Of a DNA stretch of 64,000 nucleotides, positions 20,356 through 64,000 are shown piece after piece. The notes under the pieces were generated by a model, which was not told the origin of the DNA, made no database searches, and saw only the letters and a program-made list of their open reading frames with translations. This stretch comes from Escherichia coli. GTDB lineage: Bacteria > Pseudomonadota > Gammaproteobacteria > Enterobacterales > Enterobacteriaceae. The DNA lies in assembly GCF_003991155.1 (NCBI RefSeq), contig NZ_CP031293.1; one strand, 5' to 3'. The position numbers and the translations under genes were made by a program. Every line of letters starts with the position of its first letter. Positions within the stretch are counted from its first letter, which is position 1.

Positions 20356-20374
20356 TTTTCTTGCCTTAATGCTT

Positions 20375-20460: not shown

Positions 20461-20480
20461 GGATCTTTTCTTTCGCCCAA

Positions 20481-23646: not shown

Positions 23647-23655
23647 TGTGGATAA
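23647..23655 (+). promoter_or_regulatory. DnaA box in the polA promoter region
   Basis: TGTGGATAA is the reverse complement of the consensus TTATCCACA, about 125 bp upstream of the polA ATG; a second near-match TGTGGATAG lies at 23788-23796. Confidence 0.6.
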
Positions 23656-23886
23656 CTTTGTGCATAAATTATTTACATCACTTTTAATTTATTATCATGC
23701 TTTTTACAGCATGATGTTTATCTTTGTTTTTCATGCAGTTAAAAATAAAGCCATCCCTAATAATTGAGATAATGGGATTTTTTCTAATGTGGATAGATAT
23801 GAATTATTTTTCTCCTTAAGGATCATCCGTTATTTGGGTCGTTTTCTGCTAAAATCTGCGCCTTGCGCTTCTTTAGCGCACTGTCT

Positions 23887-24819
23887 ATGGCTAACCTTTT
23901 GAATAAATTCATTATGACGAGAATACTCGCTGCGATAACCCTTTTGCTGAGTATCGTATTGACCATTTTGGTCACTATTTTTTGTTCCGTCCCGATCATC
24001 ATTGCCGGGATTGTAAAACTATTGCTACCTGTGCCAGTCATTTGGCGAAAGGTTTCGCGTTTTTGTGATTTTATGATGTATTGCTGGTGTGAAGGTCTGG
24101 CGGTATTACTGCATCTGAACCCACACCTGCAATGGGAAGTTCACGGGCTGGAAGGGTTAAGTAAGAAGAACTGGTATCTGCTTATTTGTAACCACCGTAG
24201 TTGGGCAGATATTGTCGTACTGTGCGTGCTGTTTCGTAAGCACATTCCGATGAATAAATATTTCCTCAAGCAGCAGCTGGCCTGGGTGCCATTTCTTGGC
24301 CTGGCGTGCTGGGCGCTGGATATGCCGTTTATGAAGCGTTATTCCCGCGCTTATTTATTACGTCATCCGGAGCGACGTGGTAAAGATGTTGAAACCACTC
24401 GGCGTTCTTGTGAAAAGTTTCGCCTGCATCCCACCACCATTGTCAATTTCGTTGAAGGCTCCCGTTTCACGCAAGAAAAACATCAGCAAACCCACTCCAC
24501 TTTTCAAAACTTGTTGCCACCAAAGGCGGCAGGCATTGCGATGGCGCTAAATGTACTGGGTAAACAATTCGATAAACTGCTTAATGTTACGCTGTGTTAT
24601 CCGGACAATAACCGTCAGCCGTTCTTCGATATGTTAAGCGGTAAACTGACGCGGATTGTCGTACATGTGGATTTACAGCCTATTGCCGATGAGTTACATG
24701 GCGACTACATCAATGACAAAAGCTTTAAGCGCCATTTTCAGCAATGGCTGAACTCATTGTGGCAGGAAAAAGACCGGCTTCTGACATCGTTGATGTCATC
24801 ACAGCGGCAGGAAAAGTAA
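23887..24819 (+). CDS. yihG: PlsC-family lysophospholipid acyltransferase
   Basis: ORF 23863..24819 (TTG in track); probable ATG start MANLLNKF at 23887; acyltransferase HxxxxD-type motif NHRSWADI. Confidence 0.85.
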
Positions 24820-24823
24820 GTTT

Positions 24824-24852
24824 TACTCGCCTCTGAATGAGCAGAGGCGAGT
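24824..24852. terminator. Bidirectional hairpin between convergent yihG and yihF
   Basis: tcgcctctg-aatga-gcagaggcga perfect 10-bp stem with T-rich flanks. Confidence 0.6.
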
Positions 24853-24859
24853 GAGTATT

Positions 24860-26290: not shown

Positions 26291-26395
26291 ATAAATATTC
26301 CCTGATAAAACAGCAAAACTTTAAATATCCGCTTATGCTGAAATAATGTCCAGCGGCAGGACGCATTATCAGAATGTATTTATATTTATTAAATA

Positions 26396-26425
26396 ATAAA
26401 AAAAACCCGTGAATATTCACGGGCC
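26396..26425 (-). terminator. Rho-independent terminator of dsbA
   Basis: cccgtgaatattcacggg hairpin followed by U-run on the minus strand (A-run 26396-26405 on plus). Confidence 0.75.
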
Positions 26426-26444
26426 TTATGTAATTTACATTGAA

Positions 26445-27071
26445 TTATTTTTTCTCGGACAGATATTTCACTGTATCAGCATACTGCTGAACAAAAACAT
26501 CCATATTGCTGGTATCCATACCCTGCGGATTCAGCTGATATTTACCGTTAACAAACATCGCCGGAACGCCACGCAATTGCACGTCAGCTGCAGCTTTTTC
26601 CTGCTGAGCGACCAGAGATTTGACCACGAAGCTGTTCCACGCCGCGTCGTACTCTTCACCTTTAATACCTGCGTTGATAAATACATCGCGGATATCAGAT
26701 GCTGAACGAATGGTCTGGGTTTTCTGTACGCCTTCAAACAGCGGAACAGTGACTTTGTCTTCCACGCCCAGCGCCATCGCCACAGCCCATGCCTGAGTCA
26801 GATCTTTGCCCAGGTCACCACCCATGAAGTTGACGTGGTATTTAGTCATCTTCACGCCTTCCGGCAGTTTTTTCTTCACATTATCAGAAATATGCAGAAC
26901 TTCTTCAAACTGATAGCAGTGCGGACAGAAGAAAGAGAAAAACTCCAGCACTTGCGGCGCGCCAGCTACCGGTTTTTCCAGGGTAGTGTACTGTTTACCA
27001 TCTTCATACTGCGCCGCCGATGCGCTAAACGCTAAAACTAAACCAGCCAGCGCCAGCCAAATCTTTTTCAT
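26445..27071 (-). CDS. dsbA: Periplasmic thiol:disulfide oxidoreductase DsbA
   Basis: 208-aa ORF; signal peptide; active site CPHC. Confidence 0.97.
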
Positions 27072-27087
27072 GATCTACTCTCTCCGA

Positions 27088-28074
27088 TTAATACATAGGT
27101 GTTAATTGTAAAGGGGGTTCTTGTAGAACTTTTGCCTGTTCTATAAAAGTCGCCGTTTGTCGCAGCCAGTAATCTTCCCCGGTTAACCACGGGAAATTTT
27201 TCGGGAACGCGGGATCAGCCCAACGCCGCATTAGCCAGGCAAGATAATAAACCAAACGCATGGCGCGTAAAGGTTCAATCAGTCCGATTTCAGCGGTGTC
27301 GAACTCGCTAAATTCTTCATAAGCTTCAATAATAGTTTCCAGTTGCATCCGCTGCTCGGCTTTATCGCCATTGAGCAACATCCACAAATCCTGAACGGCT
27401 GGACCATTACGTGCATCATCCAGATCAACAAACATTGGACCATCGCGCCAGAGAATATTCCCGGCGTGGCAGTCTCCATGTAGCCGCAGAACGGTGAAAT
27501 CTTCCCGCCAGTGTGCTGTAACGGCGGCGATCAGCTCATCTGTCGCTTTCAGAAATGCCGCTTTCAACCCGGAAGGTATCAGTGTAGCGTCCTCAAACAG
27601 CTTGCGAGGCTCAATGAGATATTCATTCAGACCGATGGTCGGGCGATGGATAAAAAGCTGTTTGCGCCCCGTCTGGTGCATACGCCCTAAATAACGCCCA
27701 ACCGCTTCCATCTGATCGATATTATCAGCTTCGAACTGGCGACCACCGACGCCTGGAAAAACAGCGAAATAAAATCCCTGATGATTCAATAAAGTCTGAC
27801 CGTTAAAGGCCACAGGTGCTGCGACCGGAACTTCATCATTTACCAACTGCAACGCAAATTGATGTTCTTCGAGGATTTGATCGGCTGTCCAACGTTCAGG
27901 ACGATAAAATTTGACGACAAAACGTCGACGATCTTCGTCCTGAAATTGATAGACACGGTTTTCATAGCTGTTAAGCGGGGTAAGACCGGAATCCACCCGG
28001 ATCCCTTGCTCAAACAGAGCATCCATGATGGTATCCGGGTGTAGTGTCTGGAAAGTAAAAGCGCTGTTGTTCAT
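27088..28074 (-). CDS. srkA: Stress-response Ser/Thr protein kinase SrkA (YihE/RdoA)
   Basis: 328-aa ORF; kinase-like catalytic motif HGDCHAGNILW and DLDD. Confidence 0.93.
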   Translation of the reverse strand: MNNSAFTFQTLHPDTIMDALFEQGIRVDSGLTPLNSYENRVYQFQDEDRRRFVVKFYRPERWTADQILEEHQFALQLVNDEVPVAAPVAFNGQTLLNHQGFYFAVFPGVGGRQFEADNIDQMEAVGRYLGRMHQTGRKQLFIHRPTIGLNEYLIEPRKLFEDATLIPSGLKAAFLKATDELIAAVTAHWREDFTVLRLHGDCHAGNILWRDGPMFVDLDDARNGPAVQDLWMLLNGDKAEQRMQLETIIEAYEEFSEFDTAEIGLIEPLRAMRLVYYLAWLMRRWADPAFPKNFPWLTGEDYWLRQTATFIEQAKVLQEPPLQLTPMY

Positions 28075-28489: not shown

Positions 28490-29074
28490 GTGAATCTGAT
28501 GACGACGATAACAGGCGTTGTGCTGGCGGGCGGTAAAGCCAGACGAATGGGCGGCGTAGATAAAGGATTGCTTGAATTAAACGGCAAACCATTATGGCAA
28601 CATGTCGCTGATGCGCTTATGACGCAGCTTTCTCACGTCGTGGTTAATGCTAATCGTCATCAGGAAATCTATCAGGCAAGCGGTCTGAAAGTGATTGAAG
28701 ATTCACTGGCGGATTACCCAGGCCCTCTGGCAGGAATGCTTTCAATAATGCAGCAGGAAGCGGGTGAGTGGTTTTTGTTTTGTCCGTGCGATACGCCTTA
28801 CATTCCCCATGATTTAGCCTCCCGGCTTACTCATCAGCGCAAAGATGCGCCTGTCGTGTGGGTCCACGACGGTGAACGCGATCACCCGACTATTGCTCTG
28901 GTAAACCGCGCAATTGAGCCTTTATTACTGGAATATCTGCAAGCAGGAGAACGCCGGGTTATGGCATTTATGCGTCTGGCTGGCGGTCATGCGGTTGATT
29001 TCAGCGATCGTAAAGAGGCATTTATAAACGTGAATACGCCAGAGGAGCTTGCCCGATGGCAGGAAAAACGATGA
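28490..29074 (+). CDS. mobA: Molybdenum cofactor guanylyltransferase
   Basis: 194-aa ORF with GTG start; [11 protein letters not shown] nucleotide-binding motif. Confidence 0.93.
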
Positions 29075-29683: not shown

Positions 29684-29803
29684 ATGCCTGGCAGTTCCCT
29701 ACTCTCGCATGGGGAGACCCCACACTACCATCGGCGCTACGGCGTTTCACTTCTGAGTTCGGCATGGGGTCAGGTGGGACCACCGCGCTACGGCCGCCAG
29801 GCA
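29684..29803 (-). rRNA. rrfA: 5S ribosomal RNA (120 nt)
   Basis: Reverse complement reads TGCCTGGCGGCCGTAGCGCGGTGGTCCCACCTGACCCCATGCCGAACTCAG...GGAACTGCCAGGCAT. Confidence 0.97.
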
Positions 29804-29896
29804 AATTCTGTTTTATTAACCCGCTTGTCGCCGGTTAATTTAATCTGTATCAGGCTGAAAATCTTCTCTCTTCCGCCAAAACACCTTCGGCGTTGT

Positions 29897-32800
<2,904 letters not shown>

Positions 32801-32982
32801 TCACAACCCGAAGATGTTTCTTTCGATTCATCATCGTGTTGCGAAAATTTGAGAGACTCACGAACAACTTTCGTTGTTCAGTGTTTCAATTTTCAGCTTG
32901 ATCCAGATTTTTAAAGAGCAAAACTTCGCAGTGAACCTTTGCAGGTACACTCTGAAGTATTTTTATTTAATCACTACAGAGA

Positions 32983-33058
32983 TGGTGGAGCTATGCGGGA
33001 TCGAACCGCAGACCTCCTGCGTGCAAAGCAGGCGCTCTCCCAGCTGAGCTATAGCCCC
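32983..33058 (-). tRNA. alaT: tRNA-Ala (UGC), spacer tRNA
   Basis: Reverse complement GGGGCTATAGCTCAGCTGGGAGAGCGCCTGCTTTGCACGCAGGAGGTCTGCGGTTCGATCCCGCATAGCTCCACCA (76 nt). Confidence 0.97.
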
Positions 33059-33100
33059 ATAACATGTAGTTAAAACCTCTTCAAATTTGCGGTGCAAATT

Positions 33101-33177
<77 letters not shown>

Positions 33178-33245
33178 GTAGAGGTTTTACTGCTCATTTT
33201 CATCAGACAATCTGTGTGAGCACTGCAAAGTACGCTTCTTTAAGG

Positions 33246-34787
<1,542 letters not shown>

Positions 34788-45260: not shown

Positions 45261-46573
<1,313 letters not shown>

Positions 46574-48260: not shown

Positions 48261-50503
<2,243 letters not shown>

Positions 50504-51366: not shown

Positions 51367-52794
51367 CTAGCGCGACTGCTGATTATATTCATCATCGCGT
51401 TGATAAGCTTCATCATTCGGCTGCTCCGGAACCGACCGCAGTCGATACTCTTCATCCTGGCTCACCGCTTGTTCAGCCAAATCCGGATTAATCTCGCGTT
51501 TAATTTCTACCCCTAAACCGCGAAACGCTTCTGCCTGCGCCAGCACATTTCCGCGACCTGAAGAGAGTTTTTTCATTGCCTGGCGGTAGTTATCCTGCGC
51601 TTTGTCGAGACTTTGACCAATCGCTGACATGTCATCGACGAACAAACGCATCTTGTCGTACAGCTTGCTGGCACGATCGGCGATTTGCTGGGCGTTGCGG
51701 CTTTGATGCTCATAACGCCACAGGTTGGCGATAGTGCGCAGCGCCACCAGCAGCGTAGTCGGGCTAACCAGCATGATATTGTTTTTCAACGCTTCGGTGA
51801 TCAGCTCCGGCTGGCGGTCAAGCGCCAGTAAAAAAGCGGGTTCAACGGGAATAAACATCAGAACGTAATCCAGGGTTCGCAGCCCCGGCAGCTGTTGATA
51901 ATCTTTGCGTCCCAGCAAACGGATATGGTTACGCACCGACGCGATATGTTCCTGTAGCGCGCTTTCGCGGGTGTAGTCATCTTCGGCGTTGAAATAGCGT
52001 TCATAGGCGACCAGCGTCATTTTGGCGTCGATCACCACATCTTTTCCCTGCGGCAACCGCACGATGACATCCGGCTGCATCCGCGAGCGGGCGTCATTTT
52101 CGATGCTGACCTGGGTTTCATATTCATACCCTTCACGCAGACCGGAAGCCTCCAGCACCCGCGTCAATACTACCTCGCCCCAGTTGCCCTGGGTTTTATT
52201 GTCGCCTTTCAGCGCACGCGTCAGGTTGATCGCTTCCTGGGCCATCTGGGCGTTGAGTTGCTGGAGGTTGCGGATTTCGTGAGTCAGGGTATGACGTTCC
52301 TGGGCTTCTTTACCAAAGCTGTCCTGGACCTGACGGCGGAAACCGTCCAGTTGTTCACGCAACGGCGACAACAGGCTGTTCAGGCTCTGACGGTTTTGCT
52401 CATCAACCCGGCGATTGCTGTGCTCAAAAATACGGTTGGCGAGGTTTTCAAACTGCTCACTGAGGCGCTGCTCGCTGTTAATCATCTGGCGAATTTTATC
52501 GTCAGCATGTTGCTGTGCAGCTTCCATCCGCGTGGTCACTTCACGCAGATCGGCCTCCAGCGAGGTGTTAATACTTTGCAGGCTGCGCACTTCGTTATTG
52601 AGTAACTCGCACTCAGCGCGCCAGTGCTCGCTTTGGGTAATTTGTTGTTTTGCCGCGCTTAACTCCGCGACCATCTCTTCACGTTCAGCTAATTGCTCGG
52701 CTTTTTGCTGCGCATGTTGATAACTGGCAAACAGCCAGCCAATTGCCACACCCACCAACGCAATAACTGCGTAAACCATGATTGAGAAATCCAC
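51367..52794 (-). CDS. rmuC: DNA recombination protein RmuC
   Basis: 475-aa ORF, N-terminal TM segment and long coiled-coil. Confidence 0.93.
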   Translation of the reverse strand: MDFSIMVYAVIALVGVAIGWLFASYQHAQQKAEQLAEREEMVAELSAAKQQITQSEHWRAECELLNNEVRSLQSINTSLEADLREVTTRMEAAQQHADDKIRQMINSEQRLSEQFENLANRIFEHSNRRVDEQNRQSLNSLLSPLREQLDGFRRQVQDSFGKEAQERHTLTHEIRNLQQLNAQMAQEAINLTRALKGDNKTQGNWGEVVLTRVLEASGLREGYEYETQVSIENDARSRMQPDVIVRLPQGKDVVIDAKMTLVAYERYFNAEDDYTRESALQEHIASVRNHIRLLGRKDYQQLPGLRTLDYVLMFIPVEPAFLLALDRQPELITEALKNNIMLVSPTTLLVALRTIANLWRYEHQSRNAQQIADRASKLYDKMRLFVDDMSAIGQSLDKAQDNYRQAMKKLSSGRGNVLAQAEAFRGLGVEIKREINPDLAEQAVSQDEEYRLRSVPEQPNDEAYQRDDEYNQQSR

Positions 52795-52913
52795 AACGCC
52801 TCCTGACGCAACAACTTACCCGCACAAAATAGAATTGTGCTGTACAAACGTCCAGTTTGAAAGAAGTTTCCTGCGAGGCGCTACGCAAAACGATCGTTAA
52901 TTTTCATTATTTT

Positions 52914-52949
52914 ATCCCACAATATGAGATGGAGTTTATATTGTGGGAT
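52914..52949 (+). promoter_or_regulatory. Perfect 12-bp inverted repeat, candidate IclR-type operator
   Basis: ATCCCACAATAT-(12 nt)-ATATTGTGGGAT, 62 bp upstream of the IclR-family gene start. Confidence 0.5.
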
Positions 52950-53010
52950 ATATCACCTTTTCCCCACGTCATTATGTGGAACACTTCAGCAATATCATCA
53001 GGAGAAACGT

Positions 53011-53778
53011 ATGGCAGAAACCTCTTCAACCACCGCAGGCGCACAAACGTTATTACGTGGACTGGCGGTTCTTAATGCTGTTTATAACGGCTGCCATGAC
53101 CTAAAAAGTATCGGCGAGTTCACCGGCACGACCCGGAGCACAACCCATCGTTTAGTCACCGTTCTGGTGGAACAACGCTACCTGCGCCATGTCCCAACGC
53201 AGGGCTACCAACTGGGTGCCAAACTGATCGAATTCGGTGCCAGAGCACTGGAAAGCACCTCGCTGTACGAAATTGCCCAGCCCGTTTTGCAACGCCTTGC
53301 CCGTTACACCCTGGACACCGTGCATCTGGGGATCGTTGAAGGCGACGAAGTGCTGTATCTGGAGAAGATCAACAGTCAGCGCGGGCTGGAAATGCGCTCA
53401 CGCCCAGGCCATCGCATGCCACTGGCAATCACCGGCATCGGCAAGGCATTGATCCTCAACCGAACAGAAGAAGAGTGGCGCACGCTGTTTAAGACCTGTG
53501 GTGATGAAACAAAACTGGGCGCATTTATTCAGAACATGCGTCGTTATGCCGCCAGTGGTTTTGCTTTTGATCTGGAAGAGAACGAGCCGACTATCCGTTG
53601 CGTTGCAGCGCCGGTTTACAACGCCCGGGATGAAATTGTGGCGGCTATTTCTGTCGCCAGTACCACCACGTATATGTCGCTGGCGCGTCTGGAAGAACTG
53701 GCACCTTACGTCAAATCCTGTGCAGAAGAGATATCCGCTGAACTGGGCTGGGGTAAGCACGTCCGCAAAGATAAATAA
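53011..53778 (+). CDS. IclR-family transcriptional regulator
   Basis: ORF 52924..53778; ATG at 53011 preceded by AGGAG; N-terminal wHTH (LRGLAVLNAV...) and C-terminal effector domain typical of IclR. Confidence 0.8.
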   Translation: MAETSSTTAGAQTLLRGLAVLNAVYNGCHDLKSIGEFTGTTRSTTHRLVTVLVEQRYLRHVPTQGYQLGAKLIEFGARALESTSLYEIAQPVLQRLARYTLDTVHLGIVEGDEVLYLEKINSQRGLEMRSRPGHRMPLAITGIGKALILNRTEEEWRTLFKTCGDETKLGAFIQNMRRYAASGFAFDLEENEPTIRCVAAPVYNARDEIVAAISVASTTTYMSLARLEELAPYVKSCAEEISAELGWGKHVRKDK

Positions 53779-53801
53779 ACCATGATTAAAGGAAACGACT
53801 A

Positions 53802-54806
53802 ATGCCGGGAGCACCCTCATTTATTGCCCTGGACTGGGGAACGTCATCGCTTCGGGCATGGCGTTTTGGCGAATCACCAAATCCACAAGAAAAACGTGAA
53901 TTCCCCTGGGGGATCATGAAATTACCCTCCCAGGCAGCAACACGTGAGGACGCTTTCCACGATACGTTTTTACGTGTCTGCGGCGACTGGCTGGCACAAA
54001 CCCCATGCCCGGTACTGGCTTGCGGCATGCTCGGCAGTGCGCAAGGGTGGCAACCAGCAGCTTATTTACCTTGCCCGGTCACTCTCGAGGGTCTGGCGAA
54101 GCAGTTGACGCCTGTTATCCACCAGCAGCAGACAATGCTGCACATCATTCCTGGCGTGATTAAAGAAGGTGAAATGCCCGAAGTGATGCGTGGCGAAGAG
54201 ACACAAATCTTCGGTGCTATCTCGATGGAACCGGCCCTGCAAAACGCGATCCATCAGGGTATGCCAGTGCTGATAGGCTTACCCGGCACACATGCGAAAT
54301 GGGCAGTAGTTGAAAACAACACCATTACCGATTTCCGAACCTTTATGACGGGCGAGTTATTTGATGTTTTATCCCGCCATTCGATTCTCGGTGCCACCAT
54401 GCATCCTGGAGATGAACCGCACTGGGATGCCTTCACCCACGGGCTGACAGCAGCACAAGAGCATCATCAGACCGGATTATTATCGACGCTGTTTTCGACC
54501 CGTTCGCGCCTGCTGACCAGTAATCTTACGTCGTCCTCGCAGGGGGATTACCTTTCCGGATTACTGATAGGCCATGAATTATGTGGTCTGGCATCCAGTT
54601 TGCTACGTGATTTACCCGCCACAACACCGATCGCCTTAATCGGTAGCGCAAATCTGAACAGCCGCTATTCACAAGCATTCAACCACGTTTTTCCCGACAG
54701 ACAGATACACGCCATTCCCAATGCCACTGAACAGGGATTATGGCGAATCGCCCACGCTGCCGGGTTACTGTCCACCAACGCCAGGGAATGTACCCATGCC
54801 ATTTAA
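53802..54806 (+). CDS. 2-dehydro-3-deoxygalactonokinase (DgoK)-family sugar-acid kinase
   Basis: 334-aa ORF; motifs shared with DgoK as recalled: IALDWGTS-LRAW, VMRGEETQ, PGTHAKW, DFRTFMTGEL, LSGLLIG; RBS AAAGGAAA upstream. Confidence 0.7.
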   Translation: MPGAPSFIALDWGTSSLRAWRFGESPNPQEKREFPWGIMKLPSQAATREDAFHDTFLRVCGDWLAQTPCPVLACGMLGSAQGWQPAAYLPCPVTLEGLAKQLTPVIHQQQTMLHIIPGVIKEGEMPEVMRGEETQIFGAISMEPALQNAIHQGMPVLIGLPGTHAKWAVVENNTITDFRTFMTGELFDVLSRHSILGATMHPGDEPHWDAFTHGLTAAQEHHQTGLLSTLFSTRSRLLTSNLTSSSQGDYLSGLLIGHELCGLASSLLRDLPATTPIALIGSANLNSRYSQAFNHVFPDRQIHAIPNATEQGLWRIAHAAGLLSTNARECTHAI

Positions 54807-55425
54807 TACGCTTTTGCAAAAAACCGGTTTAGTCGCCATTTTACGCGGTGTGAAACCGGATGAGATTGTCGCCATCGGTGAAAAACTGTACGCCGCCGGA
54901 TTCCGCCTGATTGAGATTCCTATGAACTCGCCGGAGGCGTTGCAAAGTATCAGTTTACTGCGCGACGCCCTGCCTAAGGACTGCCTGGTCGGAGCCGGAA
55001 CTGTGCTTTCGGTAGAGCAGGTGGTTGCGGTTAAAGAGGCTGGGGGCCAGATTATCGTGATGCCGCATTGCGATACTGCGGTGATCCGTCGCGCCCGTGC
55101 GCTGGGTATGTATTGTGCGCCTGGCGTCGCCACGCCCACCGAAGCCTTTGCTGCCATTGAACATGGTGCTAATGCCATCAAGCTGTTCCCAGCTGAACAA
55201 ATTACGCCAGAAGTTACCAAAGCCTGGCGTGCGGTTATTCCACAATCCGTTCCGATGTTACCGGTTGGCGGTATCACACCGGAAACCATGGCGCGTTATC
55301 TGAGCCACGGCGCAAACGGCTTTGGCCTCGGTTCTGCGCTATATCACCCCGGCATGACGCCAGAGCAAGTCTATGAAAATGCAGTACTGTTTATGAACGC
55401 ATGGAACAATTTAAATAGCAACTAA
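54796..55425 (+). CDS. KDPG/KDPGal (DgoA/Eda)-family class I aldolase
   Basis: ORF 54721..55425; probable start MPFNTLLQKTGLVAILRGV at 54796, overlapping the kinase 3' end by 11 nt; aldolase-family motifs (IEIPMNSP, GAGTVL, PGVATPTE, VGGITPE). Confidence 0.7.
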   Translation: MPFNTLLQKTGLVAILRGVKPDEIVAIGEKLYAAGFRLIEIPMNSPEALQSISLLRDALPKDCLVGAGTVLSVEQVVAVKEAGGQIIVMPHCDTAVIRRARALGMYCAPGVATPTEAFAAIEHGANAIKLFPAEQITPEVTKAWRAVIPQSVPMLPVGGITPETMARYLSHGANGFGLGSALYHPGMTPEQVYENAVLFMNAWNNLNSN

Positions 55426-55449
55426 CTGATAAATAAGGATATAAAAGCA

Positions 55450-56424
55450 ATGATAAAACATCTTACCTTACCGAAAAAAATGGCTGCAATGGTACTTCTT
55501 GCAGGCGCTGCCCTCAGCATTGCGCCTGTACAGGCAGCCTCCTACCCAACCAAACAGATCGAGTTAGTCGTTCCCTACGCTGCCGGAGGCGGTACGGATC
55601 TGGTTGCCCGTGCCTTTGCTGATGCCGCCAAAAACCATTTACCCGTCAGCATCGGGGTTATCAATAAACCTGGCGGAGGCGGTGCTATCGGCCTGAGTGA
55701 AATCGCCGCTGCCCGCCCTGGCGGTTACAAAATTGGTTTAGGCACAGTTGAACTGACCACCCTTCCCAGCCTCGGAATGGTGCGTTTTAAAACCAGCGAC
55801 TTTAAACCCATTGCCCGTCTGAATGCGGATCCGGCTGCTATCACAGTCCGTGCCGATGCGCCGTGGAATAGCTATGAAGAATTTATGACTTACGCCAAAG
55901 CGAATCCCGGAAAAGTACGCATTGGTAACTCAGGCACCGGAGCTATCTGGCATCTGGCGGCAGCTGCACTGGAAGACAAAACGGGCGCAAAGTTTTCTCA
56001 TGTCCCGTATGACGGCGCAGCCCCTGCCATTACAGGCCTGTTAGGCGGGCACATTGAAGCGGTTTCCGTAAGCCCAGGAGAAGTTATCAACCATGTGAAT
56101 GGCGGCAAGCTGAAGACACTGGTAGTGATGGCGGATGAGCGAATGAAAACCATGCCTGACGTCCCGACGTTAAAAGAGAAAGGCGTTGATCTCTCCATCG
56201 GCACCTGGCGCGGCCTGATTGTGTCGCAAAAAACGCCGCAGGATGTGGTGGATGTTCTGGCAAAGGCAGCAAAAGAGACGGCTGAAGAGCCTGCATTCCA
56301 GGATGCACTGCAAAAGTTGAATCTCAACTATGCATGGCTTGACGCTGCCAGCTTCCAGACCCAAATCAGCGAACAGGAAAAGTACTTTGACGAGTTGCTG
56401 ACTCGCCTGGGCCTGAAAAAATAA
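55450..56424 (+). CDS. tctC: Tripartite tricarboxylate transporter (TTT) periplasmic substrate-binding protein, TctC/Bug family
   Basis: 324-aa ORF; signal peptide; resembles TctC/Bug proteins. Confidence 0.8.
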   Translation: MIKHLTLPKKMAAMVLLAGAALSIAPVQAASYPTKQIELVVPYAAGGGTDLVARAFADAAKNHLPVSIGVINKPGGGGAIGLSEIAAARPGGYKIGLGTVELTTLPSLGMVRFKTSDFKPIARLNADPAAITVRADAPWNSYEEFMTYAKANPGKVRIGNSGTGAIWHLAAAALEDKTGAKFSHVPYDGAAPAITGLLGGHIEAVSVSPGEVINHVNGGKLKTLVVMADERMKTMPDVPTLKEKGVDLSIGTWRGLIVSQKTPQDVVDVLAKAAKETAEEPAFQDALQKLNLNYAWLDAASFQTQISEQEKYFDELLTRLGLKK

Positions 56425-56437
56425 ACCTGAGGTACGG

Positions 56438-56947
56438 TTGATGAACACAAAACAGTCTGTTGCTCAACTCGCCGTACCGCACCGCAAGCGCCTTTCATCA
56501 ACGATGGTGGTGGCGCTGTTACTTTGTGTGGTTGCTGGCGCGGTGATGATTAATGCCGCTGATTTTCCAGCAACGGCCATTGAAACGGATCCCGGTGCAA
56601 GTGCCTTCCCTACTTTCTATGCCTGCGCTCTGATTGTGCTCGCTGTCTTGCTGGTGATACGCGATCTTTTGCAGGCAAAACCAGCCTCTTGCGCCAACGC
56701 ACAGGAAAAACCGGCATTCAGGAAAACGGCAACAGGAATTGCGGCAACCGCGTTTTATATTGTGGCGATGAGCTACTGCGGTTATCTCATTACTACTCCT
56801 GTTTTCCTCATCGTCATTATGACGTTGATGGGCTACAGGCGATGGGTACTCACACCGGGTATTGCGCTGCTGTTAACGGCAATCCTCTGGTTGCTGTTTG
56901 TCGAAGCGTTACAGGTGCCATTGCCTGTCGGCACATTTTTCGAATAA
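56438..56947 (+). CDS. tctB: TTT small membrane subunit TctB
   Basis: 169-aa hydrophobic ORF between tctC and tctA. Confidence 0.7.
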   Translation: MMNTKQSVAQLAVPHRKRLSSTMVVALLLCVVAGAVMINAADFPATAIETDPGASAFPTFYACALIVLAVLLVIRDLLQAKPASCANAQEKPAFRKTATGIAATAFYIVAMSYCGYLITTPVFLIVIMTLMGYRRWVLTPGIALLLTAILWLLFVEALQVPLPVGTFFE

Positions 56948-56959
56948 CAGGGGCCAGCA

Positions 56960-58450
56960 ATGTTTGAAAGTGAACTTTTAACTCAGGGTTTTTCGACATT
57001 ACTCAATAATCCTCAGGCGCTGCTGTTTGCCACTTTTGGGGTGATGCTGGGTATTGTGATTGGCGCTTTGCCTGGTCTGACAGCGACCATGGGTGTGGCG
57101 ATTTTGCTGCCTTTCACCTACGGCATGGAGCCTGTTTCTGGCTTGTTGATGATTTGCGGCGTCTTTTTTGGTGGCGTCTACGGTGGTTCTATCACCGCAA
57201 TTTTGCTCAAAATTCCCGGAACGCCTGCCGCCGCAGCCACCGCTATTGATGGTTATGAGCTGACGAAACAGGGAAAAGCAGGGCTGGCATTGAGTGCCGC
57301 CACGTTCTCTTCCTTTAGTGGCGGAACGCTCAGCATTATCGTGCTGATGTTTCTCTCTCCGGTACTTGCCAGTTGGGCGCTGAAATTTAGTGCCTCGGAG
57401 TCCTTCGCCCTGGCAACCTTCGGACTGAGCATTATTGCCAGTATTTCCGGTGAGTCGCTGATTAAAGGGCTGATTGCCGGGGTTGGCGGATTGCTGATCG
57501 CAACGATAGGCCTTGATCCAATGGGCGGTTTTCCACGGTTTACAGGTGGATTTGTGGAGCTGATGAATGTGCCATTTATCCCGGTGATGATTGGTTTATT
57601 TGCTGCTTCAGAAGCATTCCGCTCTATGGAGCAAAACCAGCAAATTCGTCAGGGGGCGAAGGTGGCTATCGGCAGTCTGTTACTGCCCTGGCAAACACTA
57701 CGCCGCATTGCATTAACCATTTTGCGCTCATCAGGATTAGGGGTTTTTATCGGCATGATCCCCGGTGCGGGGGCGGATATTGCAGCTTTTGTTGCCTATA
57801 ACGAAACTCGTCGTTTCAGTAAGACACCAGAAAACTTTGGTAAGGGTGAAATTAAAGCTGTGGCCTCCTGTGAGGCAGGCGCGAATGGCTGCACCGGTGG
57901 CGCATTGTTACCTATGCTGACGCTGGGGATCCCTGGCGATGCGGTAACCGCCATCATGCTGGGCGCGTTAACGTTACAGGGAATGCAACCAGGCCCGCTG
58001 ATGTTTACCGACCACGGCGATATGGTTTATACACTGTTTGTCGGCATGATCTTTTGTTACTTCATGCTGCTAGTTCTTGGACTGCTCTCTTTGAAAGTCA
58101 TCGGTAACGTGGTGAAGATCCCCGGCAATATTCTCACACCGATGATCCTCGCACTTTGTGTGGTCGGGACTTATGCGTTGAACAATAGCCTGTTTGATGT
58201 TGGCATTATGCTGATTGCAGGCGTGGTGGGCTATTTCATGCAGAAAGGAGGATATCCGGCATCACCCGTAGTGCTGGCATTGATTATGGGCCCGATGGCA
58301 GAAAGTAATTTTCGCCGTGCGCTGTCGCTTTCAGGGGGTTCACTGGACTTTCTGTATACCCGACCGGTCACTCTGGCATTGCTAACTCTGGCAGCCTTTA
58401 CGCTACTGACGCCAATAATCCGCAAAATAATGCGTTTACGGCGTCAGTAA
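56960..58450 (+). CDS. tctA: TTT large permease subunit TctA
   Basis: 496-aa polytopic membrane ORF with Gly-rich TM segments. Confidence 0.8.
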   Translation: MFESELLTQGFSTLLNNPQALLFATFGVMLGIVIGALPGLTATMGVAILLPFTYGMEPVSGLLMICGVFFGGVYGGSITAILLKIPGTPAAAATAIDGYELTKQGKAGLALSAATFSSFSGGTLSIIVLMFLSPVLASWALKFSASESFALATFGLSIIASISGESLIKGLIAGVGGLLIATIGLDPMGGFPRFTGGFVELMNVPFIPVMIGLFAASEAFRSMEQNQQIRQGAKVAIGSLLLPWQTLRRIALTILRSSGLGVFIGMIPGAGADIAAFVAYNETRRFSKTPENFGKGEIKAVASCEAGANGCTGGALLPMLTLGIPGDAVTAIMLGALTLQGMQPGPLMFTDHGDMVYTLFVGMIFCYFMLLVLGLLSLKVIGNVVKIPGNILTPMILALCVVGTYALNNSLFDVGIMLIAGVVGYFMQKGGYPASPVVLALIMGPMAESNFRRALSLSGGSLDFLYTRPVTLALLTLAAFTLLTPIIRKIMRLRRQ

Positions 58451-58457
58451 CTGATAT

Positions 58458-58487
58458 CGCTCCCCGAAGTTGGGGAGCGTTTTTTTA
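58458..58487 (+). terminator. Rho-independent terminator ending the accessory operon (abuts the udp stop)
   Basis: cgctccccgaagttggggagcg followed by TTTTTTT. Confidence 0.8.
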
Positions 58488-59249
58488 TTTCAGCAGACGA
58501 CGCGCCGCTTCCACCACGATTTTCACCGCATGGCTTTCGGTTTGTTTCATCGTCTCAGCATTCGGGATCTCTTGCTGGGTGCGGTTAACGATAACCCCCG
58601 CTACCATACCGGCACGCAGGCCCTGACTTGCACACATGGTCAGCAGGGTTGCAGATTCCATTTCATAGTTCATTACGCCCATCGCCTGCCACTCTTCCAT
58701 AGAACCTTTAAAGTGACGAACTACGCGACCAGAGTAAGTATCGTAACGTTCCTGACCAGGGTAGAAGGTATCAGAAGAAGCTGTCACGCCAACGTGAGTC
58801 GTCGCGCCAATGGATTTCGCAGCTTCAACCAGCGCAGTCGTACATTCGAAATCAGCGACAGCCGGGAATTCCAGCGGTGCGAAGTGCAGGCTCGCACCAT
58901 CCAGACGAACAGACGCCGTGGTAACCAGGACATCGCCAACATTAATATGCGGCTGAATAGCGCCCGTTGTGCCGATACGCAGGAAGGTGCGAATGCCCAG
59001 CTGTGCCAGCTCTTCAACAGCAATAGAGGTAGACGGGCCGCCGATACCGGTAGAGCAGACGATAACAGGTTTACCATCCAGCTCTGCACGCCAGGTGGTG
59101 AATTCGCGATGAGATGCCAGCTTAACCGGCTTATCCATCAGCGCGGCGATCTTTTCCACACGATCCGGGTCGCCAGGGACGATGGCAAGCGTAGCCCCTT
59201 GTAAATCGTTTTTAGTGAGGCCGAGATGAAAAACATCAGACTTGGACAT
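58485..59249 (-). CDS. udp: Uridine phosphorylase
   Basis: ORF 58485..59255; start [11 protein letters not shown]. Confidence 0.96.
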
Positions 59250-59374
59250 ATACAACTCCTCTGTGAATCGGTTTAGTCAGAAGAAGCAAAAAGACACTTT
59301 ACCGAAGGGTTTAACATTTTTTCGTGATACTCATCACCATGACGAAAATGCGTTGCATAAATTTACCCGCCAAA

Positions 59375-59390
59375 AGTGATGCAAATCACA
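59375..59390. promoter_or_regulatory. CRP-binding site in the udp promoter region
   Basis: AGTGA-tgcaaa-TCACA matches TGTGA-N6-TCACA; a TGTGA half-site lies at 59445-59449. Confidence 0.6.
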
Positions 59391-59510
59391 TAAATCACTC
59401 TTCATTCTGCAGGACTGCATAAAAGATGAGCCGATTCAGGCAATGTGATTTGTTGCATGCTGACTATAGTTAACATTGCGCAACATTTTTATAAGGGTAC
59501 GGAGAATACC

Positions 59511-60320
59511 ATGGCAACAACACAACAATCTGGATTTGCACCTGCTGCATCGCCTCTCGCTTCGACCATCGTTCAGACTCCGGACGACGCGATTGTGGCG
59601 GGCTTCACCTCTATCCCTTCACAAGGGGATAACATGCCTGCTTACCATGCCAGACCAAAGCAAAGCGATGGCCCACTGCCAGTGGTCATTGTAGTGCAGG
59701 AAATTTTTGGCGTGCATGAACATATCCGCGATATTTGTCGCCGTCTGGCGCTGGAGGGGTATCTGGCTATCGCACCTGAACTTTACTTCCGCGAAGGCGA
59801 TCCGAATGATTTTGCCGATATCCCTACGCTGCTTAGCGGTCTGGTAGCAAAAGTGCCTGACTCGCAGGTGCTGGCCGATCTCGATCATGTCGCCAGTTGG
59901 GCTTCCCGCAACGGCGGCGATGTTCATCGTTTAATGATCACCGGATTCTGCTGGGGTGGACGTATCACCTGGCTGTATGCCGCGCATAATCCACAGCTAA
60001 AAGCCGCAGTGGCGTGGTACGGCAAACTGACGGGCGATAAGTCGCTGAATTCACCGAAACAACCTGTTGATATCGCAACCGATCTTAACGCGCCGGTTCT
60101 CGGCTTATATGGCGGCCAGGATAACAGCATTCCGCAAGAGAGTGTGGAAACGATGCGCCAGGCGCTGCGGGCAGCAAACGCGAAAGCAGAGATTATCGTG
60201 TACCCGGATGCAGAGCATGCGTTCAACGCTGATTATCGCCCGAGCTATCATGCCGAATCTGCGAAAGATGGCTGGCAGCGAATGTTGGAATGGTTTACAC
60301 AGTATGGTGTTAAAAAGTAA
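59511..60320 (+). CDS. ysgA: Dienelactone hydrolase-family protein
   Basis: ORF 59445..60320; start at MATTQQSGF preceded by GGAGAA; alpha/beta hydrolase. Confidence 0.85.
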   Translation: MATTQQSGFAPAASPLASTIVQTPDDAIVAGFTSIPSQGDNMPAYHARPKQSDGPLPVVIVVQEIFGVHEHIRDICRRLALEGYLAIAPELYFREGDPNDFADIPTLLSGLVAKVPDSQVLADLDHVASWASRNGGDVHRLMITGFCWGGRITWLYAAHNPQLKAAVAWYGKLTGDKSLNSPKQPVDIATDLNAPVLGLYGGQDNSIPQESVETMRQALRAANAKAEIIVYPDAEHAFNADYRPSYHAESAKDGWQRMLEWFTQYGVKK

Positions 60321-60576
60321 CGCCATAGTCGCTAAATCTGATGATTAAGCTCACGCAATTTCAACGATTTTTTTAATCTCAAAACCATACAGCATCAAAA
60401 AATTTGTTGCTGTATGCCACTCTTTGACTCCCTTCACATTCGTCATCACACCACCTGCTGAATGCAAAAATTTCGTTGCTGTGCGGCAAACTTTTTTCCT
60501 GTTTTGTGCCGCTTTTCTCCTGAATACTCGTTCTCAGAACAACTGGATCGTTTAAACATCAGACAGGAGATTTACC

Positions 60577-61245
60577 ATGACGCAATCCATTTTTCAGGCT
60601 CAACCCTTTGAATTACCTTTTGATCCGCGCACAACTGCACTGGTCATGATCGACATGCAGCGTGACTTTGTCGAAGCAGGGGGCTTCGGTGAGGCACTGG
60701 GCAATGATGTTTCACTGGTACGCACGGCTATCGCACCATGTACAGAGGTGCTGGCAGCCGCACGTCAAAAAGGAATTATGGTTATTCATACTCGTGAAGG
60801 CCATCGTGCAGACTTAAGCGACTGCCCGCCAGCCAAACTGACGCGCGGCGGAAAAACCTTTATTGGTGAACCAGGACCGATGGGACGCATTCTGGTCAGA
60901 GGTGAAGCAGGTCATGACATCATTCCTGAACTGTACCCGGTGGCAGGCGAACCGGTGATTGATAAGCCTGGCAAAGGCGCGTTTTATCAAACCGACTTAC
61001 ATCTGATTTTGCAAAACCACGGTATCAAGACGCTGATAGTTTGTGGTGTTACAACCGAAGTTTGCGTAACCACCACCGTGCGCGAAGCAAATGATCGTGG
61101 CTATGAATGCATTATCCCGGAAGATTGTGTCGGCTCCTATTTCCCGGAATTCCAGAAATACGCCCTCGAGATGATCAAAGCACAAGGTGCCATTTTCGGT
61201 TGGGTTACTGATTCCAAAGCCATTATTGCAGGCCTGGAAGGCTAA
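60577..61245 (+). CDS. Isochorismatase-family cysteine hydrolase (amidase-like)
   Basis: 222-aa ORF; Asp in MIDMQRDF, Lys in KPGKGAF, Cys in VCGVTTEVCV: the D-K-C triad pattern of this family. Confidence 0.75.
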   Translation: MTQSIFQAQPFELPFDPRTTALVMIDMQRDFVEAGGFGEALGNDVSLVRTAIAPCTEVLAAARQKGIMVIHTREGHRADLSDCPPAKLTRGGKTFIGEPGPMGRILVRGEAGHDIIPELYPVAGEPVIDKPGKGAFYQTDLHLILQNHGIKTLIVCGVTTEVCVTTTVREANDRGYECIIPEDCVGSYFPEFQKYALEMIKAQGAIFGWVTDSKAIIAGLEG

Positions 61246-61250
61246 CACCG

Positions 61251-62111
61251 ATGGTACAGGTTACGCTTTGCGCATCGTCGTTGGGATATCTTTTCCCGCA
61301 GAATGAAACGCAAGATTTACGTCTACATAGCGCTTTTAAACATGCGGTAAATCTGTATTCAGACGCGGGAACATTCATCACTCTGTTGTGTGCGCAAACG
61401 TATCTGAATCTCCCTGATGCAGCCAGAGTCTGGCTACCTGAATGTTGGGACTGGCGAAGAGAGATTGCCCATTCAGATCCCATTCAGTTAACCCCAGGCT
61501 TACTGCGGACACCTCGATTTTGTGTGGCGCTCGAAAACGCAACGCTCTGGCAGTCGCCATTTGTGGGGGGAATGCTGACACTTGAGGCATTCCCTTTGGT
61601 TTTCCAGCACTACCCAACGATGGCATCGCAACGGCTTTTATTTTGTCTGGAACATAACGTTCAAAGCACATTGCACCTGCCGGATAGTCTCACGCACCAG
61701 GGATTAGCGATTATGGAGCATCCAGATGCGCTGGAACGCCAGGTGCCACAACTGATCGGCTTTGGTAAAGGCTTAACGCCCGATGGAGATGACTATTTGT
61801 TGGGCTATCTGGCAGCACTCTGGTTATGGCAACTCCCTGCACCACTTGCCGATCATCAATACCGGTTGCAGCAGGTAATTGATCAACATGCGCACAACAC
61901 CACGGATATCAGTCGTCATTATCTGGAGCGTGCGCTTCAGGGACATTTTTCAGAACCGATTTGCCAGTTACTCGCACAACTGGTTGGGAGTGCATCGGCA
62001 ATGACAATCGCATCCTGTGCAGAACAGGTCATGCAATTTGGCGCAACGTCAGGAGTAGATTGCCTTGCAGGAATGCTGCATGGCTTTCGAACCCTGAACA
62101 CCATAAATTGA
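61251..62111 (+). CDS. Conserved hypothetical protein, possibly DUF2877 (YahE/YlbF-like)
   Basis: 286-aa ORF starting 5 nt after the hydrolase stop; GFGKGLTPDGDDYLLGY motif; assignment by position next to the FdrA-like gene, not verified. Confidence 0.45.
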   Translation: MVQVTLCASSLGYLFPQNETQDLRLHSAFKHAVNLYSDAGTFITLLCAQTYLNLPDAARVWLPECWDWRREIAHSDPIQLTPGLLRTPRFCVALENATLWQSPFVGGMLTLEAFPLVFQHYPTMASQRLLFCLEHNVQSTLHLPDSLTHQGLAIMEHPDALERQVPQLIGFGKGLTPDGDDYLLGYLAALWLWQLPAPLADHQYRLQQVIDQHAHNTTDISRHYLERALQGHFSEPICQLLAQLVGSASAMTIASCAEQVMQFGATSGVDCLAGMLHGFRTLNTIN

Positions 62112-62205
62112 TTTCAACCTTTTCTCCCGTAGCCCGTTTATGGGGCTACACGGGGATGCTTTGCCCGAATTTTGCTATCGGGCGGAATGAAACAGGCGTA
62201 ACAGC

Positions 62206-63765
62206 ATGAAAGTTAAATATAAAGTTTTCAGTAATCTTTATCAGGACTCAGTTTCTCTGATGCAGATTTCCGCGCAAATCAGCAAGTTGCCCGGTATTCA
62301 ACAGGCCTCGGTCGTCATGGGAACACCCAATAATCTCGAGCAATTGAGCGATGCGGGTCTGGGTAACGAAATCAACGCCAGTCCCAATGATTTAGTGATT
62401 GCAGTCATGGGTGAAGAAGATATTTGCAATGAAGCACTGGTACTGGCCCAGCAACGTCTGACCAGCAAACCCGATGATGAAACGGATAGTGGCATTAAAA
62501 CACCGGAAAAGGTCAGCCTGGAAATGGCACTGGAAGCCGAGCCCGAAGCCAACCTGGCACTCATTTCTGTACCGGGAGACTACGCCGCCGCCGAAGCAAT
62601 TAAAGCGTTAAACCTCGGAATGAACGTGATGATGTTCAGCGATAACGTCAGTATCGTGCAGGAAAAATCCATCAAAACGCTTGCCCGAGAACGTCAGCGC
62701 ATCGTAATGGGACCTGACTGTGGAACCGCCATTGTTAACGGCATTCCGTTAGGCTTCGCTAATGTGGTGAAACGCGGAGCAATTGGTGTTATTGGCGCGT
62801 CAGGCACCGGGCTACAGGAAGTGACTTGCCGAATCGACCAGCTCGGAGCGGGTATTTCTCAGGCGTTGGGAACAGGCGGACATGATCTCAGTGAAGAGAT
62901 TGGTGGAATATCGATGCTCTTCGCTTTAGATGCGCTGGCGCAAGACGATGAAACTCGCGTGATTGTGCTTATTTCAAAACCGCCTTCACCGATCGTTGCC
63001 CGGACTATTCTGGAGCGTGCCGAGGCTTGTGGAAAACCCGTGGTGGTGAATTTCCTCGGTGCGAATCCGCATGATCTGGCACGTCCCAATATCACCGCGG
63101 CCACCACACTTGCCAGCGCCGCAAATATCGCCGTGGCGTTACTGAATGATCAACCACTTCCGACTATCGAGACCGAAATTTCCTGCGACGATCTCACAAT
63201 GTTACAAAACGCCTGCCAGCGCCTGCCAGCCCATCGCCAGGCGATACGCGGTGTTTTCGCCGGAGGAACCTTCTGCTACGAAGCGCAACTTATCTGCCAA
63301 CAAAAGGGATTCAGCGCAGCCTCCAATACGCCAGTTGCGGGTAATCGTGCTCTGGCAAATATCTGGCAAAGCGAAGATCACACGTTGATCGATATGGGCG
63401 ACGATGATTTCACCCGTGGCAAACCGCATCCAATGATCGACCCGACTCTGCGCAATCAACGTCTGCTCAACGAACTCAACGACTCACACACTGCCGTCGT
63501 GTTATTCGACCTGGTACTTGGTTATGGCGCTTCCACGACGCCTGCCAGCGAATTACTGGACCAACTTTCACACATCGACATGAATAACGCACCGTTGCTG
63601 ATTGCGCACGTTTGCGGAACGGAAGCTGATCCGCAAATACGCAGTCAGCAGATAAGCGCACTACAAAATGCAGGGGTCATCATCGCCAGCAGCAATGCAC
63701 AGGCGGCGTTATGGGCCAGCACCGTTGCACAGACTCAGTTGCAGAAAAAGGGGCTAAACGCATGA
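62206..63765 (+). CDS. FdrA-family protein (CoA-binding, succinyl-CoA synthetase alpha-like fold)
   Basis: 519-aa ORF; motifs recalled from FdrA: QDSVSLM, VMGTPNN, NVMMFSDNV, MGPDCGT, IGVIGASGTG, PHPMIDPTLRNQ. Confidence 0.75.
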   Translation: MKVKYKVFSNLYQDSVSLMQISAQISKLPGIQQASVVMGTPNNLEQLSDAGLGNEINASPNDLVIAVMGEEDICNEALVLAQQRLTSKPDDETDSGIKTPEKVSLEMALEAEPEANLALISVPGDYAAAEAIKALNLGMNVMMFSDNVSIVQEKSIKTLARERQRIVMGPDCGTAIVNGIPLGFANVVKRGAIGVIGASGTGLQEVTCRIDQLGAGISQALGTGGHDLSEEIGGISMLFALDALAQDDETRVIVLISKPPSPIVARTILERAEACGKPVVVNFLGANPHDLARPNITAATTLASAANIAVALLNDQPLPTIETEISCDDLTMLQNACQRLPAHRQAIRGVFAGGTFCYEAQLICQQKGFSAASNTPVAGNRALANIWQSEDHTLIDMGDDDFTRGKPHPMIDPTLRNQRLLNELNDSHTAVVLFDLVLGYGASTTPASELLDQLSHIDMNNAPLLIAHVCGTEADPQIRSQQISALQNAGVIIASSNAQAALWASTVAQTQLQKKGLNA

Positions 63766-64000
63766 ATACCTTATTTAATCAGCCTTTGAAGGTTGTGAAC
63801 GCGGGACTACACAGTTTTGCTGACAATATTCAACATGCCGGGGGAAGCGCAATTGCACTCAACTGGCAGCCACCAGCACAAGGCGATATTGACGCTGGAT
63901 TGGATCTGGCATCGTTGCTACGTCATCCCCTGGTAGAAAATGCCAACCAAATCGCCATGACACGTTATCTCGAAGCACAGCCCGTGCTGGTGGATGTCAT
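63762..64000 (+). CDS. Downstream ORF translationally coupled to the FdrA-like gene (DUF1116 YlbE/YahG-like by position), 3' end beyond window
   Basis: ATG overlaps the FdrA-like stop (ATGA); frame open to the window end (MNTLFNQPLKVVNAGLHSF...); family inferred from gene order only. Confidence 0.45.
   Translation, partial: MNTLFNQPLKVVNAGLHSFADNIQHAGGSAIALNWQPPAQGDIDAGLDLASLLRHPLVENANQIAMTRYLEAQPVLVDV

Follow-up and report, generated by a model that had tools for sequence, protein, structure and literature searches.

The window analysed in this work is a stretch of 64,000 nucleotides of the Escherichia coli (E. coli) chromosome, whose part between positions 52800 and 57000 is 100% identical to several complete E. 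coli genomes. Gene coordinates were taken from the PGAP annotation of the 100% identical genome NZ_CP029747.1 (window position = NZ_CP029747.1 coordinate, locus L001, + 40799), and all features described below lie on the + strand. The first of two accessory islands, located between rmuC and udp, begins with an IclR-family regulator (53011–53778; Pfam IclR_C 5e-38 and HTH_IclR), for which PGAP places the start at 53011 and the longest open reading frame at 52924. It is followed by a DgoK-family, 2-dehydro-3-deoxygalactonokinase-like kinase of 334 aa (53802–54806; Pfam DGOK 4.1e-89 over residues 11–316) and a DgoA-like aldolase (54796–55425; NCBIfam NF006600, 320 bits with a cutoff of 207; Pfam Aldolase 7e-31). 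The island is completed by tctC (55450–56424; Pfam TctC 4e-55), tctB (56441–56947) and tctA (56960–58450), which together (55450–58450) encode a tripartite tricarboxylate-type transporter. Distances between the consecutive genes are 23, -11, 24, 16 and 12 nt, and the island ends with an intrinsic terminator (58458–58489) composed of a 9-bp stem with 7 G-C pairs (58458–58479) and a subsequent T-run, TTTTTTTATT.

The second island lies between ysgA and metE and comprises eight genes, in the order cysteine hydrolase, DUF2877, FdrA-like, DUF1116, carbamate kinase, AH_C protein, NCS1 permease and LysR regulator, separated by 5, 94, -4, -8, 16, 25 and 77 nt. The isochorismatase-family cysteine hydrolase (60577–61245; Pfam Isochorismatase 6e-48) has triuret hydrolase TrtA and biuret hydrolases as its closest solved relatives; it aligns end to end with TrtA (PDB 6xix, E 8.7e-80) and gives 1e-69 with BiuH (PDB identities of these structures from PMC7948467), while its score stays below the NCBIfam BiuH equivalog cutoff (280 vs 370). 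The next genes encode a DUF2877/AllH-like protein of 286 aa (61251–62111; Pfam AllH 4e-27) and an FdrA/AllF-like protein of 519 aa (62206–63765; NCBIfam NF004760, 496 bits with a cutoff of 433; Pfam CoA_binding and Ligase_CoA), whose orthologues carry PF27530 (AllF N-terminal). Only the 5' part of the DUF1116/AllG-like gene (63762–64000; PGAP; orthologues with PF06545, AllG) is contained in the window; in the complete genome it encodes 474 aa and is followed, with an 8-nt overlap, by the carbamate kinase gene (TIGR00746, 364 bits with a cutoff of 358). The AH_C protein is a small, stand-alone allophanate-hydrolase C-terminal domain and the NCS1 permease is annotated as a 'cytosine' permease.

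Three gene junctions are of interest here. The kinase gene ends with CAT GCC ATT TAA (stop codon 54804–54806), the aldolase ATG occupies 54796–54798, and thus 11 nt (54796–54806, ATGCCATTTAA) are common to both genes. An SD-like AGGGAA (54783–54788) lies inside the kinase coding sequence, 7 nt 5' of this ATG, with a 16S 3'-end duplex of -5.1 kcal/mol. In the second island the hydrolase TAA (61243–61245) is separated from the DUF2877 ATG at 61251 by the 5-nt spacer CACCG (61246–61250), with an SD-like GGAAGG (61236–61241) inside the hydrolase gene. Finally, the FdrA-like TGA (63763–63765) and the DUF1116 ATG (63762–63764) share bases within the ATGA stop/start overlap at 63762–63765, preceded by an SD-like AAGGGG (63748–63753; 8 nt 5' of the ATG, -7.0 kcal/mol), which codes for Lys-Gly in the FdrA-like tail. 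The 11-nt overlap, the ATGA and the 5-nt gap had all been reported by the first-pass annotation, and its positions agree exactly with our reading and with the RefSeq/PGAP coordinates.

Such overlaps could be annotation artefacts if the true downstream starts were located elsewhere, for example at TTG 54814 in the aldolase gene or at ATG 63711 in the DUF1116 gene. The former would leave a 7-nt gap and is present in Buttiauxella too, and the latter has an SD-like score of -5.8 kcal/mol. Of the in-frame start candidates of the aldolase, namely ATG 54721, ATG 54796, TTG 54814 and GTG 54850, ATG 54796 is nevertheless the sole one with an SD-like match, the duplex scores of the other three being +0.4, +1.5 and +0.8 kcal/mol, respectively. 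TTG 54814 is moreover missing in Klebsiella, Pseudocitrobacter and Brenneria. In 7/7 orthologous enterobacterial loci no start codon of the open reading frame precedes the homologous aldolase ATG, and in-frame stops located 0–102 nt upstream in the orthologues also exclude the upstream ATG 54721; in Buttiauxella and the metagenomic locus L098 such a stop, 45 nt 5' of the ATG, rules out a longer form. The NCBIfam profile of the aldolase starts at residue 4 (NF006600, DgoA, positions 5–208 aligned to residues 4–207). The aldolase SD region of the window, CCAGGGAA, was also found in the metagenomic locus L099, and Brenneria (L087) has CCAGGGGA.

As for DUF1116, ATG 63762 has the best SD of its candidates, and the N-terminus MNTLFxQPLKVVN is conserved in Enterobacterales and closely similar in Paraburkholderia. 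It aligns with the orthologues of Paraburkholderia and Dyella, in which the ATG lies between the genes, preceded in Paraburkholderia by an in-frame stop at a distance of 12 nt. A purine-rich AAAAAGG(G/A)(G/A) 5' of DUF1116 is common to E. coli, Citrobacter and Edwardsiella, and Serratia has AAAAACGGAG. For DUF2877 the in-frame stop 61209–61211 makes ATG 61251 the earliest possible start. The first-pass annotation had named better, conserved downstream starts as the observation that would remove the overlaps; in our search the downstream alternatives had no SD match, and those orthologues whose start is intergenic and unambiguous started at the same residue. The comparison with orthologues thus shows the starts to be correctly placed, therefore the overlaps are real, and we consider an annotation artefact very improbable.

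We followed the gene order and junction geometry in other genomes. Of 5,426 complete E. coli genomes, 1,456 contain the junction of the first island, with an identity across it of at least 95% in every case, and 1,558 that of the second one, which occurs additionally at 124 plasmid places; the BL21/C41(DE3) lineage carries both islands, with identical junctions. The whole six-gene island 1 occurs also in Buttiauxella, Klebsiella, Pseudocitrobacter and Brenneria, and the eight-gene block of island 2 is kept from Citrobacter to Dyella, across three orders. All E. coli copies of the kinase/aldolase junction that were examined (kinase identity about 97–100%), including a 98.5%-identical one, have the same -11 nt geometry, which is found again in Buttiauxella (L085; kinase identity 59%) and in L098 (57%). 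At lower kinase identity the distance is 0 nt in L099 (54%), +13 nt in three loci (L086, L088 and L100; about 50%) and +31 nt in Brenneria (48%). The survey of distant kinases covered the best 80 loci, which came, except for a single Thermoflexales MAG, from Pseudomonas/Burkholderiales, with Enterobacterales under-sampled, and twelve single-locus look-ups were added to offset this thin sampling. Among these best 80 loci the aldolase lies directly 3' of the kinase in 77/77 assessable ones; the 77 Pseudomonas/Burkholderiales loci drawn from them contain 4–5 overlaps, 53 gaps of 1–19 nt and 19 gaps of 21–124 nt. The GTG start picked in locus L015, with an overlap of 50 nt, is probably artefactual, because the strongest SD was taken there.

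The junctions of island 2 behave similarly. The ATGA of the FdrA-like/DUF1116 pair is found in C41(DE3), Citrobacter, Edwardsiella and Serratia, down to 71% identity, with TTGA in a plasmid copy and a distance of +12/+13 nt in Paraburkholderia and Dyella. The hydrolase/DUF2877 gap amounts to 4–5 nt in Citrobacter, Edwardsiella and an E. coli plasmid copy, 23 nt in Dyella, 42 nt in Paraburkholderia and 322 nt in Serratia. The conservation of the overlaps in homologous loci, which had been put forward as a check, is thus confirmed in part: the gene order is kept very widely, but the exact geometry only in close relatives (-11 nt at kinase identity of at least 57%).

The difference resides in the C-termini of the upstream proteins. 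The last 18 residues of the kinase extend beyond its Pfam domain, which ends at residue 316 of 334, and the final 11 form the tail STNARECTHAI, which reads through the aldolase SD and start codon. Kinases of relatives that have no overlap end with AGLL*, AGLISGA* or AGLFD*, while the E. coli one extends as AGLLSTNARECTHAI. Likewise, the FdrA-like protein ends with QKKGLNA in Enterobacterales versus QLQK* in Paraburkholderia. The alignment of these C-termini shows that the overlaps arise from a short, non-conserved tail of the upstream protein crossing the downstream SD. The tail stops just inside the aldolase gene in the case of the kinase, or on the DUF1116 start codon in the case of the FdrA-like protein, and tails of this kind are what a shifted stop codon would be expected to leave.

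The dgoRKADT operon of K-12 offers the closest comparison for island 1, as there too a DgoK-family kinase is directly followed by a DgoA-type aldolase. The dgoK/dgoA overlap counts 17 nt versus 11 nt here, and in both cases His-Ala codons of the short kinase tail contain the aldolase ATG; the kinase of island 1 is, however, only 36% identical to K-12 DgoK. Apart from the DgoK kinase and DgoA aldolase, the dgo genes have no counterpart in the island: it has an IclR regulator in place of DgoR (GntR-type) and TctCBA in place of DgoT, and lacks the dehydratase DgoD. Because intermediate relatives have no overlap, the K-12 and island 1 overlaps probably arose independently.

The overlap of the kinase and aldolase frames might also be thought to serve programmed frameshifting, yielding a kinase-aldolase fusion protein, and NCBIfam does contain a natural KHG/KDPG aldolase-sugar kinase fusion family (NF041633), to which the aldolase gives a weak and partial match (84 bits, cutoff 700). 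The aldolase frame is, however, +1 relative to that of the kinase and a standard -1 slippery heptamer would give no fusion; neither a slippery site nor a downstream structure is present, the region being less structured than shuffled sequence. The aldolase has, besides, its own conserved ATG and SD, and its orthologues are separated from the kinase by gaps. With the frame relation wrong for -1 slippage, and the slippery site and structure absent, we rejected the frameshift fusion as virtually inconceivable.

Short overlaps and ATGA junctions are textbook features of bacterial genes. In about 68 kb annotated around the window, 6/41 co-directional CDS pairs overlap, among them three core pairs (pepQ/yigZ -1, mobA/mobB -19, ubiB/ubiJ -4). 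In K-12, the distance is between -8 and +6 nt in 707/2,987 co-directional pairs (24%; PMC10666635), and the commonest E. coli junction is -4 (PMC6728339). The DgoK and Eda-type aldolase pair itself has a median distance of -4 nt (q1 -7, q3 +3, n=231 species; PMC10666635 supplementary table). This type of junction is therefore already known in kind, the DgoK-aldolase pair being included in the published survey as a typically overlapping one. We conclude, with a probability of roughly 80%, that the three junctions are ordinary ones, internal to two accessory operons for catabolism in E. coli.

The first-pass annotation regarded the overlaps as an argument that these are genuine operons. Real genes, in all probability arranged in operons, are indeed present, yet the overlaps are the weakest evidence of it, and the operon assignment rests mainly on homology (Pfam/NCBIfam), synteny and the single terminator after tctA. 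In a crude pattern scan of 52700–64000 this terminator was the only strong terminator-like site (14 sites in total versus a shuffle expectation of 12.9), and no terminator comparable to the 58458 site was detected inside either island. This is consistent with polycistronic mRNAs, and each island would be transcribed as one mRNA. A simple pattern scan of the + strand found no sigma-70-like promoter, and an Rfam search returned nothing at or near the junctions.

It had further been claimed that junctions of this kind favour coupled, stoichiometric expression. The distance criterion of Huber et al. (-8 to +10 nt) includes the FdrA-like/DUF1116 (-4) and hydrolase/DUF2877 (+5) pairs, while the kinase/aldolase pair (-11) falls outside. 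The coupled pairs described by Huber et al. (2019, 2023) resemble ours in being co-directional, in their -4 and +5 junctions and in having the SD inside the upstream gene; their class is enriched in complex subunits, and the FdrA-like and DUF1116 proteins are plausibly subunits of one complex. In contrast to theirs, coupling of the pairs presented here is a prediction, and the -11 junction lies outside the predictive window. Reinitiation coupled four of the five -4 pairs of E. coli that were tested, the bioBF pair being the exception (PMC6728339). At distances of +14 to +38 nt coupling has already dropped sharply, and among short-distance pairs subunits of heteromeric complexes are enriched 4.5-fold (PMC10666635).

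Junction RNA at the three sites is not more stably folded than shuffled sequence (z +1.9, +1.2 and +0.06), which makes coupling by unmasking of a sequestered SD unlikely, and the SD-masking hairpin was rejected as the coupling mechanism. Coupling, if any, would proceed by termination-reinitiation. At the ATGA and +5 junctions a ribosome ending the upstream gene would most likely reinitiate at the adjacent AUG, presumably helped by the SD 7–8 nt upstream of it. Such reinitiation would make the synthesis of DUF1116 dependent on that of the FdrA-like protein, as would be reasonable if both, like AllF/AllG/AllH, are subunits of one carbamoyltransferase. By analogy with the published pairs, coupled, stoichiometric translation is plausible for the FdrA-like/DUF1116 pair, the relatives of which make up an enzyme of three subunits. 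At the -11 junction the ribosome would terminate 8 nt past the aldolase AUG and reinitiation would need a short backward step, with de novo initiation on the accessible SD about equally plausible. To our knowledge, no complex of such a kinase and aldolase is known, nor any need for their fixed stoichiometry. The case for stoichiometric coupling of this pair is weaker, because the -11 distance lies beyond the predictive range, the SD of the aldolase itself is accessible and the overlap is lineage-specific; for this main junction the claim of stoichiometry was over-read.

All downstream genes are preceded by an SD of their own that lies in an open region, and independent initiation is possible. 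The overlaps might accordingly be neutral by-products without any coupling, formed when a stop codon was lost or shifted and a functionless tail was added, with the downstream genes translated from their own SDs. The 11-aa kinase tail beyond the Pfam domain differs from that of Buttiauxella except for the overlap-forced His-Ala-Ile, and the kinase/aldolase overlap is missing in relatives of at most 54% identity and in most of the distant loci (best 80), in keeping with this explanation. The initiation region has an SD and is unstructured, bioBF is a precedent for an uncoupled pair (PMC6728339), and an origin of such overlaps by stop-codon loss has been proposed (PMC3887535). On the other hand, the -11 geometry persists down to 57% protein identity, the junctions of the enterobacterial orthologues all remain tight, with 31 nt at most, and the median of -4 nt for DgoK-aldolase over 231 species (PMC10666635) suggests selection on proximity; the four of five -4 pairs found to be coupled (PMC6728339) also speak against it. 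We regard purely neutral overlaps as possible, though rather unlikely.

The closest known counterparts of island 2 are the oxamic transcarbamylase operon allFGH-allK (fdrA-ylbE-ylbF-ybcF) and the yahEFG-yahI cluster of E. coli, tight operons which combine AllF/FdrA, AllG/DUF1116 and AllH/DUF2877 proteins with a carbamate kinase. All three families, AllF, AllG and AllH, are represented in island 2, and so is a carbamate kinase; the order of the three is H-F-G, as in yahEFG, while allFGH has F-G-H. Junctions between the K-12 paralogues of both islands are tight but different: besides dgoK/dgoA (-17), yahE/yahF overlap by 11 nt (-11), and the FdrA/DUF1116-type junction is +9 in fdrA/ylbE and -1 in yahF/yahG versus -4 in island 2. 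The neighbours differ too, being a TrtA/BiuH-like hydrolase, an AH_C protein and an NCS1 permease here and allantoin genes in the case of allFGH; no all (allantoin-regulon) genes are present in the context of island 2. Oxamic transcarbamylase activity of K-12 was measured with co-purified AllFGH, for which a 1:1:1 heterotrimer was assumed by the authors (PMC11326118).

Island 2 corresponds to the uncharacterised 'GR 29' region of the ExPEC strain BEN2908, whose ORFs share only 40% identity with FdrA and 46% with YahG (PMC12928451); the BEN2908 ORFs were matched to the island 2 genes by size, order and annotation. In nitrifier genomes biuH/trtA are collocated with allFGHK (PMC12625717). We tentatively suggest, while considering it doubtful, that the FdrA-like, DUF1116 and DUF2877 proteins may form a heteromeric carbamoyltransferase, an oxamic transcarbamylase paralogue for a different ureide, of which the tight junctions of their genes would be a mark, and that the island may allow ATP to be gained from triuret-, biuret- or allophanate-like compounds. 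The island could be a ureide route because a TrtA-like hydrolase, a carbamate kinase and a stand-alone AH_C domain occur in its operon. This suggestion concerns the function of the island 2 operon and not the overlaps.

The junctions themselves are of little significance: their check confirms where RefSeq places the gene starts of two accessory E. coli islands, which behave like normal operons. Their practical value lies in the fact that BL21/C41(DE3) carries both islands, so existing expression or ribosome-profiling data could be used to test coupling. Island 2, as a candidate for ureide catabolism, would be of interest in its own right; if the suggested function is true, about 29% of E. coli genomes, among them those of ExPEC strains and of the B/BL21 lineage, would carry an ATP-yielding ureide route.

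Gene overlaps were found also among the core genes of the window, beside those of the two accessory islands. These are the 19-nt mobA/mobB overlap (29056-29074), the single nucleotide shared by pepQ and yigZ (37825), the 4-nt convergent overlap of rfaH and tatD (45791-45794) and the ubiB/ubiJ overlap, likewise of 4 nt (49898-49901). Gathering-level Rfam matches to known sRNAs, all on the minus strand, placed ES222 at 12314-12421, CsrC at 19199-19452, Spot 42 at 20481-20599 and the Erse sRNA (RF02757) within the 3' part of ubiJ, at 49898-50149. Positions 29686-34787 are occupied by a complete rRNA operon, and annotation of the matching genome gives an IS4-family transposase gene on the minus strand between typA and yihL (8958-10304).

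Island 1 (53011-58489) contains the DgoK/DgoA pair and is devoid of a dehydratase, while an IclR regulator and the TctCBA transporter stand in place of DgoR and DgoT. This gene content suggests that a 2-keto-3-deoxy sugar acid is taken up directly. An island of these six genes occupies the rmuC-udp site in Buttiauxella, Klebsiella spallanzanii and Pseudocitrobacter, and island 1 is carried by 27% of complete E. coli genomes, C41(DE3) among them.

The eight-gene block of island 2 begins at 60577 and runs past the end of the window at 64000; in L001, the identical annotated genome (NZ_CP029747.1), it corresponds to 19778-27965. It is kept in Citrobacter, Edwardsiella, Serratia, Paraburkholderia and Dyella, and its counterpart in the ExPEC strain BEN2908 is 'GR 29' (PMC12928451). 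The exception to its otherwise tight packing is a 94-nt non-coding spacer between the DUF2877 and FdrA-like genes (62112-62205), in which no Rfam match was found. Spacers of similar length, 90-111 nt, are present in Citrobacter, Edwardsiella and Serratia; in Dyella and Paraburkholderia they measure just 1-35 nt, whereas the K-12 paralogues yahE and yahF overlap by 11 nt. The junction of the hydrolase and AllH-like genes, tight in the other Enterobacterales compared, is broken in Serratia fonticola (locus L094, 3671-3992) by a 322-nt insertion composed of a palindromic REP-like unit (CCCTCTCC...GGAGAGGG) in two or three copies.

Plasmids of E. coli also carry island 2, in copies 90-95% identical, at 124 places. 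The one on plasmid p135-1 (NZ_CP080261.1, 3014-11196) adjoins a carbohydrate porin, an aminoimidazole riboside kinase gene and IS1. In this copy, fdrA carries a frameshift and the DUF1116 gene starts with TTG instead of ATG, so that the overlap reads TTGA.

The first gene of island 2 encodes a TrtA/BiuH-like cysteine hydrolase (E 9e-80 against triuret hydrolase 6xix); the others specify AllH-like, AllF-like and AllG-like proteins, a carbamate kinase and an allophanate-hydrolase C-terminal domain that stands alone, along with an NCS1 permease and a LysR regulator. Island 2 may thus represent a putative ATP-yielding pathway for ureides of the triuret/biuret-like type.
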